The notes beneath the pieces were generated by a model. It made no database searches and was not told the DNA's origin. It saw only the letters and a program-made list of their open reading frames with translations. DNA of 64,000 nucleotides from Bacteroidota bacterium (GTDB lineage: Bacteria; Bacteroidota; Rhodothermia; Rhodothermales; JBCDJV01). The stretch covers positions 13,470 through 77,469 of the forward strand of contig JBCDJV010000006.1 in assembly GCA_038747425.1 (NCBI GenBank), in the 5' to 3' direction. This document shows positions 1 through 7,185 of this stretch, one piece after another. Each line of letters opens with the position of its first letter. The stretch's first letter is position 1. The position numbers and the translations under genes are program-made.

Positions 1-2
1 AA

Positions 3-146
3 CCAGATAGCGATTTCGTGCAAGTATGGAGAAGTGAGGTTGAAGAAGACTATGCGTTTCCTTGGCTGATCTCACCAGGCGACCGCTACGAAGCTCGGTA
101 CGAACACGGTGAGATCATACTCGGTGATACACATGTCCATGAGTAA
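3..146 (+). CDS. C-terminal 47 codons of an unidentified ORF entering from upstream of the window
   Basis: Frame 3 is open from the window edge to TAA at 144-146 (...PWLISPGDRYEARYEHGEIILGDTHVHE*). No family recognised. Local GC is clearly below the window average. Confidence 0.2.
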   Translation, partial: PDSDFVQVWRSEVEEDYAFPWLISPGDRYEARYEHGEIILGDTHVHE

Positions 147-410
147 ACGCCCTACAGGAAGACCCAACCTGCACAATAAAAACGAAACTCATCCCCCCGT
201 TTACGTATATTAGCTATGATCTGTGTACTAAGCGGGCGCGTTCTACGAAGTCTCTGACCAGTTCTCTTCCTCACCGAGTCGCAACAGCGATAGTCTAGGT
301 CCATCCTCCTAGTTGCCTTTGGCGAAGAGATGACCGACGAGATAAGTAGAAATCCCGCTTGTAATGCCTACTGCACACGTTCTTGTGTGTAGAGCATTGT
401 GCTCGCTCCG

Positions 411-439
411 CTTGCCGGTGAGGTACCCTCACCGGCAAG
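411..439. promoter_or_regulatory. Perfect 13-bp inverted repeat with 3-nt spacer (CTTGCCGGTGAGG-TAC-CCTCACCGGCAAG), 39 nt upstream of the first precursor gene
   Basis: Read directly from the sequence. No T-run follows on either strand, so it is not a canonical intrinsic terminator. Candidate operator or 5'-UTR stem. Confidence 0.35.
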
Positions 440-477
440 TTCACTGCTCCTCACATAATCTTAACTGAGGTTCCGCT

Positions 478-597
478 ATGAAAACGTGGAATACACCCAA
501 ACTCACTCGCTTTGGCAACGTCCAGGATATCACCGCACAGGGGAACGCAAAGCCCGTCCTCGGTGGTGACCTGATCATCGCAGTCGCCACGTCGTAG
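478..597 (+). CDS. Lasso-type RiPP precursor peptide, copy 1 (39 aa: MKTWNTPKLTRFGNVQDITAQGNAKPVLGGDLIIAVATS)
   Basis: ATG at 478, TAG at 595-597, GAGG 7 nt upstream. The leader fits the published lasso leader pattern (Y/W)xxPxLx3Gx5Tx. The peptide ends in Ser, and an HPrK-like kinase, ABC exporter and B2 protease follow on the same strand. It is below the 60-aa cut-off of the ORF track. Confidence 0.7.
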   Translation: MKTWNTPKLTRFGNVQDITAQGNAKPVLGGDLIIAVATS

Positions 598-880
598 TGG
601 TATCCTGGGCAGGGTAAATCCTGTCAAAGCAGCGAACGACAGTGGTAGGATGCCTCGGAGCCCTGACGTGGGGCCTCACCCGGGTATCATCAGGACACCA
701 CAGCGAAGCGCATGCTGAATGAGCCAAAGGTGCGACTATGAGTAGTCAGACAGCCTAGCATCTAGCATGCAATGTGGCTAAATTATCCTAGGGCTCAGAC
801 ACGCTCTGAATACGTAAGAGTCACAAGGGCTCCTATGTACACGTCCCGAACTTGTTTTTCCTAACCAAGGAGGTTCAGTC

Positions 881-1000
881 ATGAAGACGTGGTCAACGCC
901 TCAGCTGGCTCGCTTCGGCAACGTCAAGGATATCACCGCACAGGGCAACGCAAAGCCCGTCCTAGGTGGTGACCTGATCATCGCGGTCGCGACGTCCTAA
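881..1000 (+). CDS. Lasso-type RiPP precursor peptide, copy 2 (39 aa: MKTWSTPQLARFGNVKDITAQGNAKPVLGGDLIIAVATS)
   Basis: ATG at 881, TAA at 998-1000, strong AAGGAGG at 867-873. The C-terminal 19 residues are identical to copy 1 with only synonymous DNA differences. The leader motif is the same. Confidence 0.75.
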   Translation: MKTWSTPQLARFGNVKDITAQGNAKPVLGGDLIIAVATS

Positions 1001-1041
1001 GTGGCCACTGTAGACTCCACCCTGGAGTTATCAGACTGGGT

Positions 1042-1079
1042 CCCGCCATGGCTTCGGCCAGGGCGGGGCTTTTTCTTTG
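1042..1079 (+). terminator. Intrinsic terminator / attenuator directly after precursor copy 2
   Basis: CCCGCCATGGC-TTCG-GCCAGGGCGGG: an 11-bp stem with one mismatch and a TTCG loop, followed by CTTTTTCTTT. Confidence 0.6.
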
Positions 1080-1170
1080 ATGGACCTGTTCGTGCGGAGA
1101 CTTCGGTGCGAACGACGTGAGGCTCGCCGGTGTACAAGCTCTCCTCGTATCGTGCCAGCTCTTGTGATCC

Positions 1171-2100
1171 ATGCCTTCGCTTGCCACGCCGCATCGTTAC
1201 ACCTTCGCCGGATCGCTCATTGCATCGGACCGCCTTCTGCCACTCGTGACGTCTCAGGGCGCCGAGCAGGAACCGACGCTTCGCATCCATGCCGAACGCG
1301 AACTCGGTGCTCAACCACCTGTAGAGGACATCGGGTGTGTGTCTTCCGAGCCGGGGCAAGCCCTGCTGTACTACCCGTGGACCGGCTACATACGCGTCAC
1401 GGGGGGAGCACGGATTACCTACAACCCCGCCTCGGAAGACGAGGCTGCGTTGCTTGATACTTTGCTCACCGGTGCGGCCCTGGGCGTCGCCCTGCACCAG
1501 CGCGGTCACTTCACCCTTCATGCCAGTGCGGTGCAAATCGGAGACGAGGCCGTCGCGCTGGTCGGCGGGATGCGTGCAGGCAAAACCACGCTCGCTTGCG
1601 CCTTCCAGGCCGCTGGCCACACAATCCTGGCGGATGACATGATTGTATTCGGTGGTTCAGAGCAGGTATCGGTGTGGCCGGGCGTGCCGGAGGTGCGCGT
1701 TGACCCGGATGTGCTGCTGAACATTGTGCGGATAGAGCCGACCACCCTGCGCCGCATACACCCTTCGTCGGGTCGGCGCATCCTGCCTGTACCGACCCAG
1801 CAGGTTCCGGCCCCGGTCCCCCTGCGCGCCATCGTTTCGCTGACCGAGGGTGAACGCGCACCATGGGAGCGCCTTCGCCCACCACAGGCCTTCATGGAAC
1901 TGCTGCAGCATGCCTATGCACCACGCCTGTTGCGCCATGACAGTGTCACGCCGGGTCACCTGAGTCAGCTGCAGCGCTTGGCCACTCAAGTCCCAGTGTA
2001 CACCCTTCACCGTCCCATGAGCCTGAAAGACGTGCCTGATACCGTCTCGTGGGTCACCGAGCGACTGGCCCAGCGGACGACCAGCACGCCCGACCCCTGA
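1171..2100 (+). CDS. HPr-kinase-like (HprK-related) serine kinase of lasso/RiPP clusters
   Basis: 309 aa. The block LHASAVQIGDEAVALVGGMRAGKTTLACAFQAAGHTILADD parallels the HPr kinase catalytic core (HG..v...G.GvLi.G.SG.GKS..AL.L...GH.LvaDD). Its position is directly after precursors that end in Ser. Confidence 0.75.
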   Translation: MPSLATPHRYTFAGSLIASDRLLPLVTSQGAEQEPTLRIHAERELGAQPPVEDIGCVSSEPGQALLYYPWTGYIRVTGGARITYNPASEDEAALLDTLLTGAALGVALHQRGHFTLHASAVQIGDEAVALVGGMRAGKTTLACAFQAAGHTILADDMIVFGGSEQVSVWPGVPEVRVDPDVLLNIVRIEPTTLRRIHPSSGRRILPVPTQQVPAPVPLRAIVSLTEGERAPWERLRPPQAFMELLQHAYAPRLLRHDSVTPGHLSQLQRLATQVPVYTLHRPMSLKDVPDTVSWVTERLAQRTTSTPDP

Positions 2101-2308
2101 TAAAGCAACGCCGCGGAGCCAACCGCGCCATCATCTGGCATTGACGCATGTGCCATGCGTTAAAAACGCACCGTGGGCAGGAGGTAGATCTTGTATTCTG
2201 TGGGTGCGCTCTCCACTACAGCCACGCCTACCTCGACGGGGGCTTGGCCTTCACCAGGACCACCCACTAGTTGGCATCAAGGCCTCCCGCTGCGGTTCCC
2301 AGCGTATT

Positions 2309-4243
2309 ATGGATTCTGTAAAGCGCCGTCTTAAAGAGATCAATGAGTTGTTCGCGTACCTACCGCGAGCCTTGAGCCTTGTGTGGGCTGCGGCCAAGTG
2401 GTGGACGCTCTCCTGGGTTCTCTTGCTGCTGCTCCAAGGGCTGATGCCTGGGGCCGTGGTCTATCTCACCAAGCTGGTCCTGGACGGTGCCGGCGCCGCG
2501 ATTGGCCAAGGGCTCACCTGGGACAATGCCGAGCAGGTGGTGCAGCCTCTCATCTACATGGTGGTGGTCCTGGTCGTCCAACAGCTCGTGGGTAGCTTGA
2601 GCACCTGGGTCAACACAGCGCAGGCGGATGTAACCCGGGATTACATCCAAGGCTTGGTGCACGACAAGGCGATCCATGTGGACCTAGCGTTCTTTGACTC
2701 GGCCGAGAGTTACAACCGGCTGCACCAGGCTACCTCGCAGGCCAGCACACGCTCGCTGGAAATGCTCCAAAGCATGGGGTCGTTGTTCCAGAATAGCATC
2801 ACGCTAGTCACCATCGCGGCGCTGCTGATTCCGTATGGGGCCTGGATTCCACTTGTCCTCGTCCTCAGCACGTTACCCGCGCTGTGGGTGGTGGTCCAGC
2901 ATAATCGTCGGTACCATGCGTGGTGGAAGCAGGCCTCCATGGAAGAGCGGCAAGCTCGGTACTACGACATGATGATCACCATGGACCATTCGGCGTCTGA
3001 GGTGCGCATCTATGACAATGGGACCTACTTCAAGGACCTGTACCAGTCGCTCCGGGCCAAGCTGCGCGAGGAGAAGTTAGACCTCGTCAAGAAACAAGGA
3101 CTCGCGAGTTTCACCTCAAGCTTCATCGGCTTGGTGGCTGCCGGCGGCATCATGGCGCTGATGATCTGGCGGGCTCTCCAGGGGCTGGCTACCATCGGTG
3201 ACCTCGGCCTGTTCTACCAAGCCTTCAATCGCGGGCAAGCCTTGCTTCGAACCCTGCTCAGCAGTGCCGGACGCATCTTCACCAGCTCGCTCTTCCTGCA
3301 GCACCTCTTCGACTTCCTGGAGCTGTCGTCCAAGGTGACCAGTCCGGAGGAGCCTGTCCCGGTGCCCGCGCAGATGCAGGAAGGCATTCGCTTTGAGGAT
3401 GTCAGCTTTGCCTATCCAGGGACAGAGCGCAAGGCGCTGAGTAACTTCGATCTGCACATCCCCGCTGGCAAGGTCACCGCCATCGTGGGCCAAAACGGGG
3501 CCGGGAAGAGTACCTTCGTCAAGCTGCTCTGCCGTTTCTATGACCCCTCCGAGGGGACCGTCACCATTGATGGTACCGATATCCGATCCTTCGACGTGGA
3601 CGAGCTGCGCCGCCTAATCACGGTGATGTTTCAGTTCCCGATGCGCTATCAGGACACGGCCATCAATAACATTGCGATCAGCGATGTGCACCGCCCGCTG
3701 GATATGGAGCGTGTGCGGGCGGCGGGCGAGGCCGCCATGCTCACGGACATCGTCAAGAAGCTTCCATTTGGCTATGAAACGCAGCTCGGACGTTGGTTCA
3801 CGCAAGACCTGGACAAAAACATGGAGCTCAGTGGCGGTGAGTGGCAGCGCGTGAGCTTGGCGCGGGCCTTCTATCGGGAATCGCCCATCATCGTGCTGGA
3901 CGAACCCACGAGCGCCATGGATGCCTGGTCTGAATATCAATGGATGCAAGGCTTCGGGCAGCTCGTGGAGGGACGGACGGCCCTCATGATCACGCACCGA
4001 TTTACGACGGCCATGCATGCTGATGTCATCTATGTGATGATGGATGGGGCGGTTGTTGAGGTCGGCACGCATCGCGAGTTGCTGCAGCAGGACGGCTACT
4101 ATGCCCAGTCCTGGCGAGCTCAAATGGATCAAGGCTGGCGCGCTGCCCATGAAGAGGAGACCGCACAGCCCGAGGCGCCCAGGCCACCTCAGGATCTCGA
4201 TCCGACACCGATGCCGTTCGAGGACAACCCGCATTCGCTTTGA
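2309..4243 (+). CDS. ABC transporter, fused permease/ATPase (McjD-like peptide exporter)
   Basis: N-terminal six-TM-type region, then Walker A GQNGAGKST, signature LSGGEWQRVSLARA and Walker B IIVLDEPTSAMD. The start is taken at ATG 2309 (MDSVKRRL). The 2141-2308 extension of the ORF looks non-coding. Confidence 0.85.
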   Translation: MDSVKRRLKEINELFAYLPRALSLVWAAAKWWTLSWVLLLLLQGLMPGAVVYLTKLVLDGAGAAIGQGLTWDNAEQVVQPLIYMVVVLVVQQLVGSLSTWVNTAQADVTRDYIQGLVHDKAIHVDLAFFDSAESYNRLHQATSQASTRSLEMLQSMGSLFQNSITLVTIAALLIPYGAWIPLVLVLSTLPALWVVVQHNRRYHAWWKQASMEERQARYYDMMITMDHSASEVRIYDNGTYFKDLYQSLRAKLREEKLDLVKKQGLASFTSSFIGLVAAGGIMALMIWRALQGLATIGDLGLFYQAFNRGQALLRTLLSSAGRIFTSSLFLQHLFDFLELSSKVTSPEEPVPVPAQMQEGIRFEDVSFAYPGTERKALSNFDLHIPAGKVTAIVGQNGAGKSTFVKLLCRFYDPSEGTVTIDGTDIRSFDVDELRRLITVMFQFPMRYQDTAINNIAISDVHRPLDMERVRAAGEAAMLTDIVKKLPFGYETQLGRWFTQDLDKNMELSGGEWQRVSLARAFYRESPIIVLDEPTSAMDAWSEYQWMQGFGQLVEGRTALMITHRFTTAMHADVIYVMMDGAVVEVGTHRELLQQDGYYAQSWRAQMDQGWRAAHEEETAQPEAPRPPQDLDPTPMPFEDNPHSL

Positions 4244-4375
4244 GGAAGGCCTAGGCGGCTGATATACAGCAAAAGCACACCGAAGTGTGCGTACGGGGTG
4301 TGGCCAAAGAGGGAACACCGAACCAGCATCGAACGAGGTCGCTTGAGACGGGTACTATACACTGTTTAGGATTCT

Positions 4376-4858
4376 ATGCTACTGACGATGCCCCAGCAAA
4401 GACGTGCCTTGCGCTACATCCTTCAGCGCCTCCGCTCGCTGACGGGGGCGGAGTGGAAGCATCTGCTCACGGCGTTATGGCTGATCCCAGCCGTGCGGCT
4501 GGCGCTCTCGGCGTTTCCGTTCAAGTCTATGCTGCGGTTCATCGATGAGCTGGACCCCGCCAAACAGGAGGCCTCACCGGCCTACGTGGACGGCGCCAGT
4601 TGGGCGCTGGCTCTCATGGCGCGCACCCTCCTAGGCGACAAGCCGTGCCTCACTCAGGCACTGGCCCTACAGATCCTGCTACGCCGCCGAGCCATTCCGT
4701 CCACGCTCCGCATCGGAGTCAAGCGGGATGAGCAAGGCGGGCTGGCGGCCCACGCGTGGTTGGAGCGCGAAGAACGCGTGCTGATTGGGGGGGCCGACTC
4801 GCCGAAGCAGTACGCGCTGCTCCAGAGCCCCGATCAATACGGGGGCGCCCTGGTCTGA
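4376..4858 (+). CDS. Lasso peptide biosynthesis B2 protein (transglutaminase-fold leader peptidase, PF13471-like)
   Basis: 160 aa. The N-terminal helix is typical of B2 (LLTALWLIPAVRLALSAFPFKSML). Catalytic Cys context is KPCLTQALALQILLRRR and His context is LAAHAWLE. Confidence 0.8.
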   Translation: MLLTMPQQRRALRYILQRLRSLTGAEWKHLLTALWLIPAVRLALSAFPFKSMLRFIDELDPAKQEASPAYVDGASWALALMARTLLGDKPCLTQALALQILLRRRAIPSTLRIGVKRDEQGGLAAHAWLEREERVLIGGADSPKQYALLQSPDQYGGALV

Positions 4859-4983
4859 GTCCGTCGCCATACCGGGTGGCAAAACGGTGCGGTGCAACAA
4901 TAACCGGATGGACCGCGTCGTTAGCTGGGGTATCAACCGGGGTCCTGTGCCCTGAGCCTGCTTTGCTCTCAACCCACGCTTCC

Positions 4984-5586
4984 ATGCCTCACACCGACGA
5001 ACAGCTCGTGGCCGCCTACCTGGAACGGTCGGACCAGCAGGCCTTCAGAATGCTGGTCGAGCGTCATCAGGAGCGGATCTTCGGCTACCTGCTGGGCATG
5101 GTGCGGGATCGCCACCTCGCGAACGACCTGTTCCAAGAGACGTTCTACCGCGTCATCGCCGCGATGCAGAGGCAGCGCGGTACGTATGCCAGGCAGGGAC
5201 GCTGGTTGGCGTGGGTCATGCGCATTGCCCGCAACGCGACGCTCGATCATCTGCGCAGCCGAAAGAAGTGGCAAGACGTGGATGCCGGTCATGATGACGA
5301 TGATCGCTCCTACTGGGACTCCCTCCCGGATGCGGGTCCAGACCCTGAAGCGCTGCTGCACCGGATGGACCAAGGGGCCTGGCTGGCCCGGGCCATCGAG
5401 CGCCTGCCGAACGAACAGCGAGAAGTTCTCCTCCTTCGCCAAAACACAGATCTCACCTTTCGCGAGATCGCTGACCTCACCGATGTCTCGATCAATACAG
5501 CGCTGGGACGGATGCGCTATGCCCTCCTGAACTTGCGTAAGATGATGGTGGCCGAACAGCGAGCTACAGGCAGCCATGAAGTGTAG
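4984..5586 (+). CDS. ECF (sigma-70 family) RNA polymerase sigma factor
   Basis: Region 2 (FRMLVERHQERIFGYLLGMVRDRHLANDLFQETF) and region 4 HTH (REVLLLRQNTDLTFREIADLTDVSINTALGRMRYA). ATG at 4984. Confidence 0.9.
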   Translation: MPHTDEQLVAAYLERSDQQAFRMLVERHQERIFGYLLGMVRDRHLANDLFQETFYRVIAAMQRQRGTYARQGRWLAWVMRIARNATLDHLRSRKKWQDVDAGHDDDDRSYWDSLPDAGPDPEALLHRMDQGAWLARAIERLPNEQREVLLLRQNTDLTFREIADLTDVSINTALGRMRYALLNLRKMMVAEQRATGSHEV

Positions 5587-5638
5587 CCGCTAGCGCCCCC
5601 CACCAACGAGACCCTTCCGAAAGCCGCATACGCTCCAA

Positions 5639-6286
5639 ATGGACAAACAGCTACAACTCCTGCTCCACCTCTATGGAGAAGAGGGAGCCCCCACCGACCG
5701 GCGTGCGCTTCTGGACGATCCAGAGCTGGCTGACACGCACCAGATGTTCAGTGACGTCAAATTCCGCCTGGATCACCAGCGGATCGAACGTCCGGCCGCT
5801 GAGGTTCTGGATCAGGTTTTCCAGGCCGCTGAGCATGGCCTGCCCGCTTCACGCTTGGCACGGGCGGACCGGGCTCCCGTGGCCCGTACGTCGGTACGTC
5901 GCCGCCGTGCGCTCTTCGTGGGTGCGTGCATGACGGTCCTCCTGGGGCTCAGTCTAGCCGTGTGGACCGTAGTCCCGATAGGCTCACATGCGCCAGCCGC
6001 GTCCATGGCCACCATGGACGCCGCCCCCACAGCGCCGGCTCCAGCCGACGTATCGCCTCGTGTACTTGGCCCCTCGCAGGCGGCTCTCGGATCTCCGGCA
6101 CGGGCGCAGCATCTCACGCCGAGTGGATCGTGGGATGCTCGAGAGGACTTGCTGCAAGTACATGAGCGGCTGGAAACACTGGAAGCCTTCCGCCTGGGGC
6201 AGGACGCCTCCCGCTCGGCTCCTCAGGGCTGGCAGCTCGCTCGCCAACCAGGACCGCAGCCCGCCGCGCCTCCGTCCCCTCGGTGA
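5639..6286 (+). CDS. Putative anti-sigma factor (single-pass membrane protein)
   Basis: Lies directly downstream of the ECF sigma gene. One hydrophobic span (ALFVGACMTVLLGLSLAVWTVV). Call rests on position and architecture only. Confidence 0.5.
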   Translation: MDKQLQLLLHLYGEEGAPTDRRALLDDPELADTHQMFSDVKFRLDHQRIERPAAEVLDQVFQAAEHGLPASRLARADRAPVARTSVRRRRALFVGACMTVLLGLSLAVWTVVPIGSHAPAASMATMDAAPTAPAPADVSPRVLGPSQAALGSPARAQHLTPSGSWDAREDLLQVHERLETLEAFRLGQDASRSAPQGWQLARQPGPQPAAPPSPR

Positions 6287-6339: not shown

Positions 6340-7185
6340 ATGCTTCGCTTGATCCAACACGTGGCTGACGATCTCCTTCGTCTAGCCACCTGTGTCTTCG
6401 TACTGGCTGGGTGTCTGGGATGGCCCACAGATGGACATGCCCAAGACGTACGTACGTTGGTGATCCGGCAGGGGGTTGTCGAGATCGATGGCCAGAAGGT
6501 GCCGGCCTCACGCTGGCCGACCACGCTTCGTGTGGATAGCCTCAGTCTACACTTCGTGTTCAGTGGAGACCGGGAGCCGCTCGTAGACATCGGCCCCTAC
6601 ATCTACCGGGTAGAGGCCAACCAGCTGGTCGTCGTCGACGAAGTCTCCGCCTGGGACCGGCGGGCAGCCCACCGGGTGCCCTCGGCGCCTGATTCTTCGT
6701 TGGGGCGCCTGCTTGAGCTCCTCCGGCTTGAGGCCCAAGAAGCCGTGGAGACCGCGAAGACCGTCTCCGAACGGCCGCGCACGGCCCACTTCTACGCCAT
6801 CTCTACACGAGCAGCCCCTGAAGAGACGACCGCCCCCGTCCAAGCCTATGTTGAGAAGCTCCGAACCAAAGAGGCGGCCCTCTATGAACGGCTGACCCTA
6901 GAGTGGCGCCTAGAAGAGCAGGCGAGGCGCGAGGCCCACAGAGTTGCTGCACTGGCGGCTGGTGCCGAACGCCAAGCGGCTGAGCAGGCGCTGCGCGTGC
7001 TGCTGGAAGAGCTCTTCGTCTTGAAGCAGCAAAACCTCCAGGATGAGCTCACCGAGATGCAGGCTCGGCTGGACAGTATGCAGGCCAATCTGGACGCGCG
7101 TTCGGCCGCCCGAAACGCCATTGTGCAGCAGAGACTGGACGAATTGCTCGATTATGCCCGCACACACAGTCGTACCCACGAGTAG
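6340..7185 (+). CDS. Hypothetical exported protein with long C-terminal coiled-coil-like region
   Basis: N-terminal hydrophobic segment, then heptad-like A/E/R/L/Q-rich C-terminus. It is the third gene of the sigma/anti-sigma unit. Confidence 0.45.
   Translation: MLRLIQHVADDLLRLATCVFVLAGCLGWPTDGHAQDVRTLVIRQGVVEIDGQKVPASRWPTTLRVDSLSLHFVFSGDREPLVDIGPYIYRVEANQLVVVDEVSAWDRRAAHRVPSAPDSSLGRLLELLRLEAQEAVETAKTVSERPRTAHFYAISTRAAPEETTAPVQAYVEKLRTKEAALYERLTLEWRLEEQARREAHRVAALAAGAERQAAEQALRVLLEELFVLKQQNLQDELTEMQARLDSMQANLDARSAARNAIVQQRLDELLDYARTHSRTHE

Follow-up and report, generated by a model that had tools for sequence, protein, structure and literature searches.

The locus considered here raises the question of what becomes of a lasso-type precursor peptide when no lasso cyclase is encoded anywhere near its gene. 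In the window, i.e., the whole stretch of 64 kb of DNA that was analyzed, twin precursor genes (A1 and A2) are followed by genes for a kinase (K), an ABC exporter (D) and a lasso leader peptidase (B2), whereas the cyclase (C) and the RRE protein (B1) that accompany such genes in related clusters are missing. The features of the locus are as follows.

410..440, + strand: perfect 14-bp inverted repeat (hairpin) upstream of A1, GCTTGCCGGTGAGG/CCTCACCGGCAAGT region
467..473, + strand: RBS of A1, GAGGTTC; the identical heptamer is found before A2 at 870-876
478..597, + strand: precursor gene A1, 39 aa, leader MKTWNTPKLTRFGNVQDITA, core QGNAKPVLGGDLIIAVATS
881..1000, + strand: precursor gene A2, 39 aa, leader MKTWSTPQLARFGNVKDITA, core same as that of A1
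1039..1079, + strand: intrinsic-terminator-like GC-rich hairpin, then TTTTTCTTT, between A2 and the K gene
1171..2100, + strand: K, P-loop kinase of the HprK/PEPCK fold, 309 aa, with conserved His117, Lys138 and Asp155/156
2309..4243, + strand: D, ABC exporter with fused permease and ATPase, 644 aa
4376..4858, + strand: B2, lasso leader peptidase with a transglutaminase-like core, 160 aa, with conserved Cys91, His126 and AHAW motif
4984..5586, + strand: ECF sigma factor, a flanking gene; the order D-B2-sigma is also found in the related contig L005

A codon-by-codon comparison of the twins over codons 21-39 confirmed the observation of an earlier note on this DNA that both copies encode the identical 19-aa core QGNAKPVLGGDLIIAVATS, with 5 synonymous differences (G22 ggg/ggc, L28 ctc/cta, A35 gca/gcg, A37 gcc/gcg and S39 tcg/tcc) and 0 non-synonymous ones; the stop codons differ as well (TAG vs. 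TAA). The 20 leader codons carry the replacements N5S, K8Q, T10A and Q16K in addition to 5 synonymous changes (K2, T6, P7, L9 and F12), exactly as had been counted before. According to the Nei-Gojobori method, the core exhibits a dN of 0 at a dS of 0.40, and the values of dN/dS amount to 0.15 for the leader and 0.11 for the whole gene. If the five core changes were placed at random, they would all hit synonymous sites with a probability of (16.2/57)^5 = 0.0019, and the claim that A1 and A2 are functional peptide genes under purifying selection is therefore upheld by the lack of any amino acid change in the core at this dS (p about 0.002). The motif positions W4, P7, L9, G13 and T19 of the leader are located where they had been placed and are the same in both copies, and 0 of the 4 leader replacements fall on them. 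The core itself is polar in its N-terminal half and has a hydrophobic LIIAVA tail, with Thr38 and Ser39 as its sole hydroxyl residues, both copies ending in ATS.

The proposal that the duplication includes the RBS region stood for the approximately 10 nt before the ATG that are shared between the copies, including the GAGGTTC heptamer, but not for the remaining flanks, which are unalignable. Because similarity outside the coding sequences is restricted to these few nucleotides, the pattern fits an old duplication in which the coding sequence alone, and above all the core, has been retained by selection. Recent gene conversion was ruled out as the source of the identical cores, since five synonymous differences between them persist.

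A search with the 39-aa peptide against 5.8 billion proteins recovered the two copies themselves and no other match, and a profile made from the alignment of the twins did not match any sequence in JGI metagenome DNA. A1 and A2 score 27.7 and 23.1 bits, respectively, against the NCBIfam model NF033528 (lasso_cyano), below its curated cut-off of 33 bits, and the matches cover the leader only (model positions 3-21). Relatives were instead gathered via the similarity of B2, a B2 pattern in GTDB genomes and a leader DNA pattern in metagenomes, which yielded 19 homologous precursors from 14 loci (L003, L006-L008, L010-L018 and L020), mostly from Rhodothermales MAGs and environmental metagenome contigs. 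The leaders of A1 and A2 align unambiguously with those of the 19 relatives, with P7, G13 and T19 being invariant, and their previous assignment as lasso-type precursors is thus substantiated. The leader motif of the family, including the window, reads (Y/W)xxPxLxx(F/Y)Gx(V/I)xx(L/I)Tx. A spacing rule of Tyr(-17)/Pro(-14)/Leu(-12) has been described for lasso leaders (PMC10368454), and A1 and A2 satisfy the leader rule of Y/W(-17), P(-14), L(-12) and Thr(-2) by W4, P7, L9 and T19 of their 20 residues. Cleavage is predicted to occur before Gln21, the site to which both Thr(-2) and the spacing of W(-17), P(-14) and L(-12) point.

Counted from this site, the only acidic residue of the core is Asp31, which takes core position 11. 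Lasso peptides generally employ an Asp or Glu at core position 7-9 as acceptor, and natural rings consist of 7-9 residues (PMC12480086). In all 19 relatives, core position 8 or 9 is occupied by Asp or Glu, while no acidic residue is found at positions 7-9 of the window peptides. The earlier observation that the core, if cut at the canonical site, does not fit the ring rule thus holds true. The accompanying suggestion that Gln1 represents an unprecedented first residue had to be abandoned: the precursors of relatives in complete clusters start with I, T, F, V, K, D, N, Q, A or S, and that of L006 begins with QGN and ends in Ser, as the window peptides do. The rule that residue 1 must be G, A, S or C is not absolute either, as fusilassin starts with Trp1 and citrulassin with Leu1. 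Since residue 1 is variable among relatives from complete clusters and is Q in L006, Gln1 is not the anomaly of this locus. The true anomaly is the acceptor position Asp11, which coincides with the absence of C as well as B1; of the 15 loci that were compared, the window alone combines a misplaced acceptor with an absent cyclase. One register had been missed by the earlier note, namely Ala4-Asp11, which would correspond to a canonical 8-residue ring if the precursor were cut 3 residues further downstream; likewise, Asn3-Asp11 would give a 9-residue ring of canonical size if cleavage were shifted by 2 residues. As to the Rhodothermales-type family in general, the residue following Thr(-2)-x is mostly not G, A, S or C, and a Gly, Ala or Ser is located exactly 6 residues before the Asp in 14 of the 19 relatives. 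Judging from these sequences, either residue 1 would be unusually free in this family, or the leaders would be cut 1-2 residues later, giving a 7-residue ring.

That no cyclase is encoded nearby, as the earlier note had stated, was found to apply from -8.8 to +63 kb, i.e., to the 64-kb window and to another 8.8 kb upstream of it, which were taken from the independent Logan assembly L001. Within the window and these 8.8 kb, a scan for the SGGxDS PP-loop motif gave no occurrence, tblastn with the C and B1 proteins of the family gave no match, and neither a PqqD/RRE gene nor a fused B was found. Family HMMs (from 10 cyclases and 9 B1 proteins), which were run with filters off against the six-frame translation, detected no C or B1 and no remnants of them. 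Two further ORFs of 87 aa (4285-4548) and 40 aa (2148-2270) were inspected as potential hidden B1 or C genes with negative results. K, D and B2 match their family homologues over the full length and carry no additional domain, so none of them conceals an RRE domain; in the model of K, the N-terminal domain is made up of beta structure throughout and does not form a winged helix. Upstream of A1, the locus is abutted by a T6SS effector island (L001:1-8976, with window positions 1-146 representing the tail of its last gene), which contains ClpV, VgrG, a PAAR protein, a 940-aa OmpA/peptidoglycan-binding protein and a 361-aa protein without a family match. The latter three were considered as candidates for an unconventional cyclase and were rejected on the basis of these assignments. 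The 940-aa protein shows a weak metalloprotease-like C-terminus.

The window and L001 are two independent assemblies that agree but for 5 SNPs in 12.1 kb, and the arrangement A-A-K-D-B2 is therefore not an artefact of a single assembly. The source genome is an incomplete MAG of an uncultured organism, so that C and B1 could be located on another contig. In total, the evidence comes from one uncultured lineage, with two near-identical assemblies and one relative of 3.8 kb (L005).

The open reading frames of K, D, B2, A1 and A2 are all intact, and the conserved residues taken as catalytic are present. B2 reaches 87.8 bits against NF033537 (cut-off 33) and 79 bits against PF13471, and no aligned sequence deviates from it at Cys91 and His126, presumably the catalytic pair of B2 peptidases. 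D shares 45-53% identity with the D proteins of complete family clusters and 81-86% with that of L005. K shows no sequence match in Pfam and only sub-threshold matches in NCBIfam, while its homologues bear PF27840 (ScmC) and PF07475, the nearest kinase being 32-35% identical. PDB sequence searches with K and with B2 returned nothing significant, and the relationship of K emerged from a fold search, in which its AlphaFold model (pLDDT 88) matched structures of PEPCK (PEP carboxykinase) and HprK/P. In an alignment of 20 sequences, His117, Lys138 and Asp156 of K are invariant and Asp155 is nearly so (90% or more); these residues correspond to the His-Lys-Asp-Asp motif that is essential in the lasso kinases PadeK and ThcoK (PMC9266682). 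A single-sequence search for relatives of K in GTDB genomes found none, indicating that the lineage is absent from the GTDB species representatives.

A view on the gene order of the related loci reveals a common family architecture of B1-B2-C-A(-A)-K-D, often together with an NTP_transf_5 gene, which is complete in L006, L007, L008, L010, L011, L012, L013, L016, L018 and L020 and partial in L003 and L015. The cyclase is present at every relative locus whose contig reaches far enough, usually along with B1 and B2. The A-A-K-D segment of the window follows the gene order of the right half of the family architecture, with T6SS genes replacing the left half: unlike in the family order, A-K-D is not preceded by B1-B2-C, and B2 lies after D and not between B1 and C. 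Gene order within the Rhodothermales-type family is plastic, as L015 exhibits the order A-A-K-C and L009 contains a lone B2. In the latter case, a Rubricoccaceae MAG (CAVSJM010000005.1, L009:9980-10426), the B2 homologue stands amid housekeeping genes (DUF480, HhH-domain protein and transporters), and no gene for C, B1, K or a family precursor occurs within 10 kb of it. Twin precursors are also encoded in L003, L007, L015, L016 and L017, where the two copies differ from each other in core and tail, whereas the core of the window twins is frozen and their variation is confined to non-motif positions of the leader. An HprK-like kinase is encoded at every one of the 14 precursor loci, but most of the relatives' precursors terminate in P, C, G, I, L or V and not in Ser, suggesting that the kinase target in the Rhodothermales-type family is probably not a C-terminal Ser of the paeninodin type.

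The placement of B2 after D recurs in L005, a 3.8-kb Logan contig that ends inside D and shows the same D-B2-ECF-sigma order as the window. Identities between the two amount to 66% for B2, 81-86% for D and 85% for the sigma factor, and the next relatives of B2, mostly from Rhodothermales MAGs and metagenome contigs, follow at 40-48%. As judged from its recurrence in this second, diverged genome, the D-B2-sigma arrangement is not recent. The values of dN/dS between window and L005 are 0.27 for B2, 0.065-0.07 for D and 0.045 for the sigma factor. Since the B2-after-D placement is shared with L005 and these values are well below 1, it is old and under purifying selection, although B2 is the most relaxed of the three genes. 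In L005, a frameshift within a stretch of G residues (L005:1190-1210) interrupts the gene for D. It is probably an assembly error and not the sign of a pseudogene, because the part downstream of it retains a dN/dS of 0.07. A 101-aa ORF of L005 was rejected as a hidden B1 or C, as it turned out to be the frameshifted C-terminus of D.

Taken as a whole, the sequence comparisons lead to the verdict that the locus should be viewed as derived from a kinase-associated lasso cluster, with cyclase and RRE missing. The family relationship, the purifying selection, the intact genes and the absence of C, B1 and an acceptor at position 8 or 9 are direct observations. The reading preferred for its product, tentatively and at somewhat less than an even chance, is that A-A-K-D-B2 constitutes a cyclase-less offshoot yielding a leader-cleaved linear peptide, which is phosphorylated on its C-terminal Ser and exported. 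The cluster of the window would then descend from the Rhodothermales-type B1-B2-C-A(-A)-K-D phospho-lasso family by loss of C and B1. The HprK-like kinase K would phosphorylate Ser39 of the linear precursor, B2 would subsequently cut off the 20-residue leader after Ala20, acting without B1, and the ABC exporter D would secrete the product. No macrolactam would be formed, and the predicted product is the linear 19-mer QGNAKPVLGGDLIIAVAT-pS. Its N-terminal Gln may additionally cyclize to pyroglutamate, toward which a free N-terminal Gln tends. A more elaborate version, in which a lasso pathway shed its cyclase and RRE and had its leader, B2, kinase and exporter repurposed for a linear peptide capped by both pyroglutamate and phospho-Ser, is possible but has to be viewed with more doubt. 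The kinase step has precedent, since the characterized lasso kinases act on linear precursors and, for recognition, need little more than a Ser at the C-terminus (PMC9266682, PMC8498205). The weak point of the linear reading is the role assigned to B2, because the B2 enzymes of the split-B systems studied require B1 for leader cleavage (PMC10368454, PMC5067487). The conserved W/P/L motif for B1 binding in A1 and A2 hints that an RRE protein may still read the leader, and since it is conserved in both copies, a B1 acting in trans, and hence also a C acting in trans, may be involved.

Such a split cluster, with C and B1 encoded elsewhere in the genome, perhaps as parts of a second, complete lasso cluster, is considered somewhat unlikely. 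Its product would be a lasso peptide with a ring of a size unprecedented in nature, from Gln1 to Asp11 (11 residues) or from Gly2 to Asp11 (10 residues), or with an Asn3-Asp11 (9) or Ala4-Asp11 (8) ring after shifted cleavage. The incompleteness of the MAG and the plastic gene order of the family, as seen with the A-A-K-C order of L015 and the B2 gene standing alone among housekeeping genes in L009, are in line with it, and the positions W(-17)/P(-14)/L(-12)/T(-2) were kept in the twins despite 4 other changes in the leader, as if they were bound by an RRE. A ten-residue ring has indeed been obtained in vitro with the fusilassin enzymes, and only there so far (PMC8498205), but natural rings contain 7-9 residues (PMC12480086) and each of the 19 relatives keeps its acceptor at position 8 or 9. 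Moreover, no C or B1 is encoded within 72 kb, and cleavage 2-3 residues past the Thr(-2) site is without experimental precedent. Lasso peptides also require a steric plug (PMC8498205), for which the 8-residue aliphatic tail LIIAVATS offers no residue large enough to hold a big ring. Quite unlikely, too, is a relic cluster, in which C and B1 were lost and the leftover genes give no defined product, the peptides being unprocessed or unexpressed. It would be consistent with the loss of both the pathway-defining enzyme and the RRE, with the divergence of K from the family kinases (24-34% identity), which is much larger than that of D from the family D proteins (45-53%), with the dN/dS of B2 of 0.27 as compared to 0.05-0.07 for its neighbors, and with the frameshifted D gene of L005. 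However, the twin cores have not changed by a single amino acid across a dS of 0.4, the five open reading frames are intact with their presumed catalytic residues present, and a strong RBS and a terminator have been retained. In addition, the D-B2 arrangement has persisted over a dS of at least 1 while dN/dS stayed clearly below 1, and the frameshift of L005, which lies in a run of G and is followed by sequence with a dN/dS of 0.07, is most likely an assembly error.

The earlier note had also speculated that B2, because of its transglutaminase-like fold, might cross-link the side chain of Gln1 to Lys5, a small isopeptide ring thus replacing the macrolactam. Both residues are present in the core, and the Cys-His active site of B2 is that of the transglutaminase-like superfamily, but the idea found no support and appears extremely improbable: B2 is an ordinary lasso B2 by its score (87.8 bits against NF033537) and by its identity of 40-48% to the B2 proteins of complete clusters, and Lys5 is not conserved in the sole relative starting with Q1 (L006), which has Gln at position 5. 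To our knowledge, no B2 is known to transamidate.

Among the known systems, the locus most closely parallels the Rhodothermales-type clusters, such as those of L006 (GCA_041391505.1, JAWKNW010000011) and L007 (GCA_039944855.1, JBDUXZ010000030), with which it shares the homologous leader, the A-(A)-K-D order, the tandem twin precursors that are common there, and homologous K (30-35% identity), D (45-53%) and B2 (40-48%) proteins. It differs from them in lacking B1, C and the nucleotidyltransferase, in the position of B2 after D, in a short core (19 aa) that has no Cys pair and whose Asp is found at position 11 and not at 8 or 9, and in the identity of its twin cores, which are diversified in the other clusters. 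A further group for comparison consists of paeninodin and the systems of ThcoK, SyanK and PsmK, whose phosphorylated lasso peptides were reportedly described by Zhu et al. in 2016. As in these systems, an HprK-like kinase with His-Lys-Asp-Asp adjoins a precursor ending in Ser, and a split B2 and an ABC exporter are present; their kinase acts on the linear precursor (PMC9266682, PMC8498205). In contrast to the window, all of them possess C and B1 and form threaded lassos with rings of 7-9 residues, and the kinase of the window stands apart by its lack of a Pfam match and its merely sub-threshold NCBIfam matches. The bsf cluster from Bradymonas also contains a kinase and bends the canonical rules, with Ile at position -2 and phosphorylation on Ser3, and its B2 cleaved the linear phosphorylated precursor in vitro with no cyclase in the assay; unlike the window, however, it encodes C and B1 and a core with Gly1-Asp8, and B1 is required there for efficient phosphorylation and cleavage (PMC10368454).

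If the version with a linear peptide capped at both ends proves true, the locus would represent the first cyclase-independent descendant of a lasso system, with B2 and K being able to work without B1. A cyclase-less pathway, if confirmed, would provide a natural test of RRE-independent function for a B2 peptidase and a lasso kinase, and it would add a small linear phosphopeptide to the biology of the Bacteroidota and Rhodothermales. The combination of lost C and B1, lost acceptor position and a peptide frozen by selection is the signature expected if RiPP modules outlive their class-defining enzyme, and the leader, peptidase and tailoring modules would then go on to a different product. Genome mining defines lasso peptides by the enzyme pair of B and C, and therefore a cluster without C is either invisible to mining or dismissed as incomplete. 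If C and B1 were found elsewhere in the genome, the peptides would become candidates for a natural ring exceeding 9 residues or for cleavage at a shifted site, so that the locus is informative in both cases, whether it is cyclase-less or complemented in trans.

In the public record, the cluster is betrayed by B2 only: the 39-aa ORFs at 478-597 and 881-1000 are not called in the annotation of the MAG (MEM1125516-18), and the NCBI annotation names B2 and D but labels K (1171-2100) as a hypothetical protein. No RNA family of Rfam was matched in positions 1-6000 of the window. The terminator-like hairpin at 1039-1079 has a T-run after its stem and a z of -3.2, while the hairpin at 410-440 is predicted with an MFE of -32.4 kcal/mol (z = -5.1 vs. 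shuffles) and has no T-run downstream; it may serve as a terminator for the preceding gene or as an operator for the promoter of the precursors. Past the ECF sigma factor gene, the ORFs 5639-6286 and 6340-7185 show no family match, and the product of the former contains a single hydrophobic segment, which makes it a candidate anti-sigma factor.
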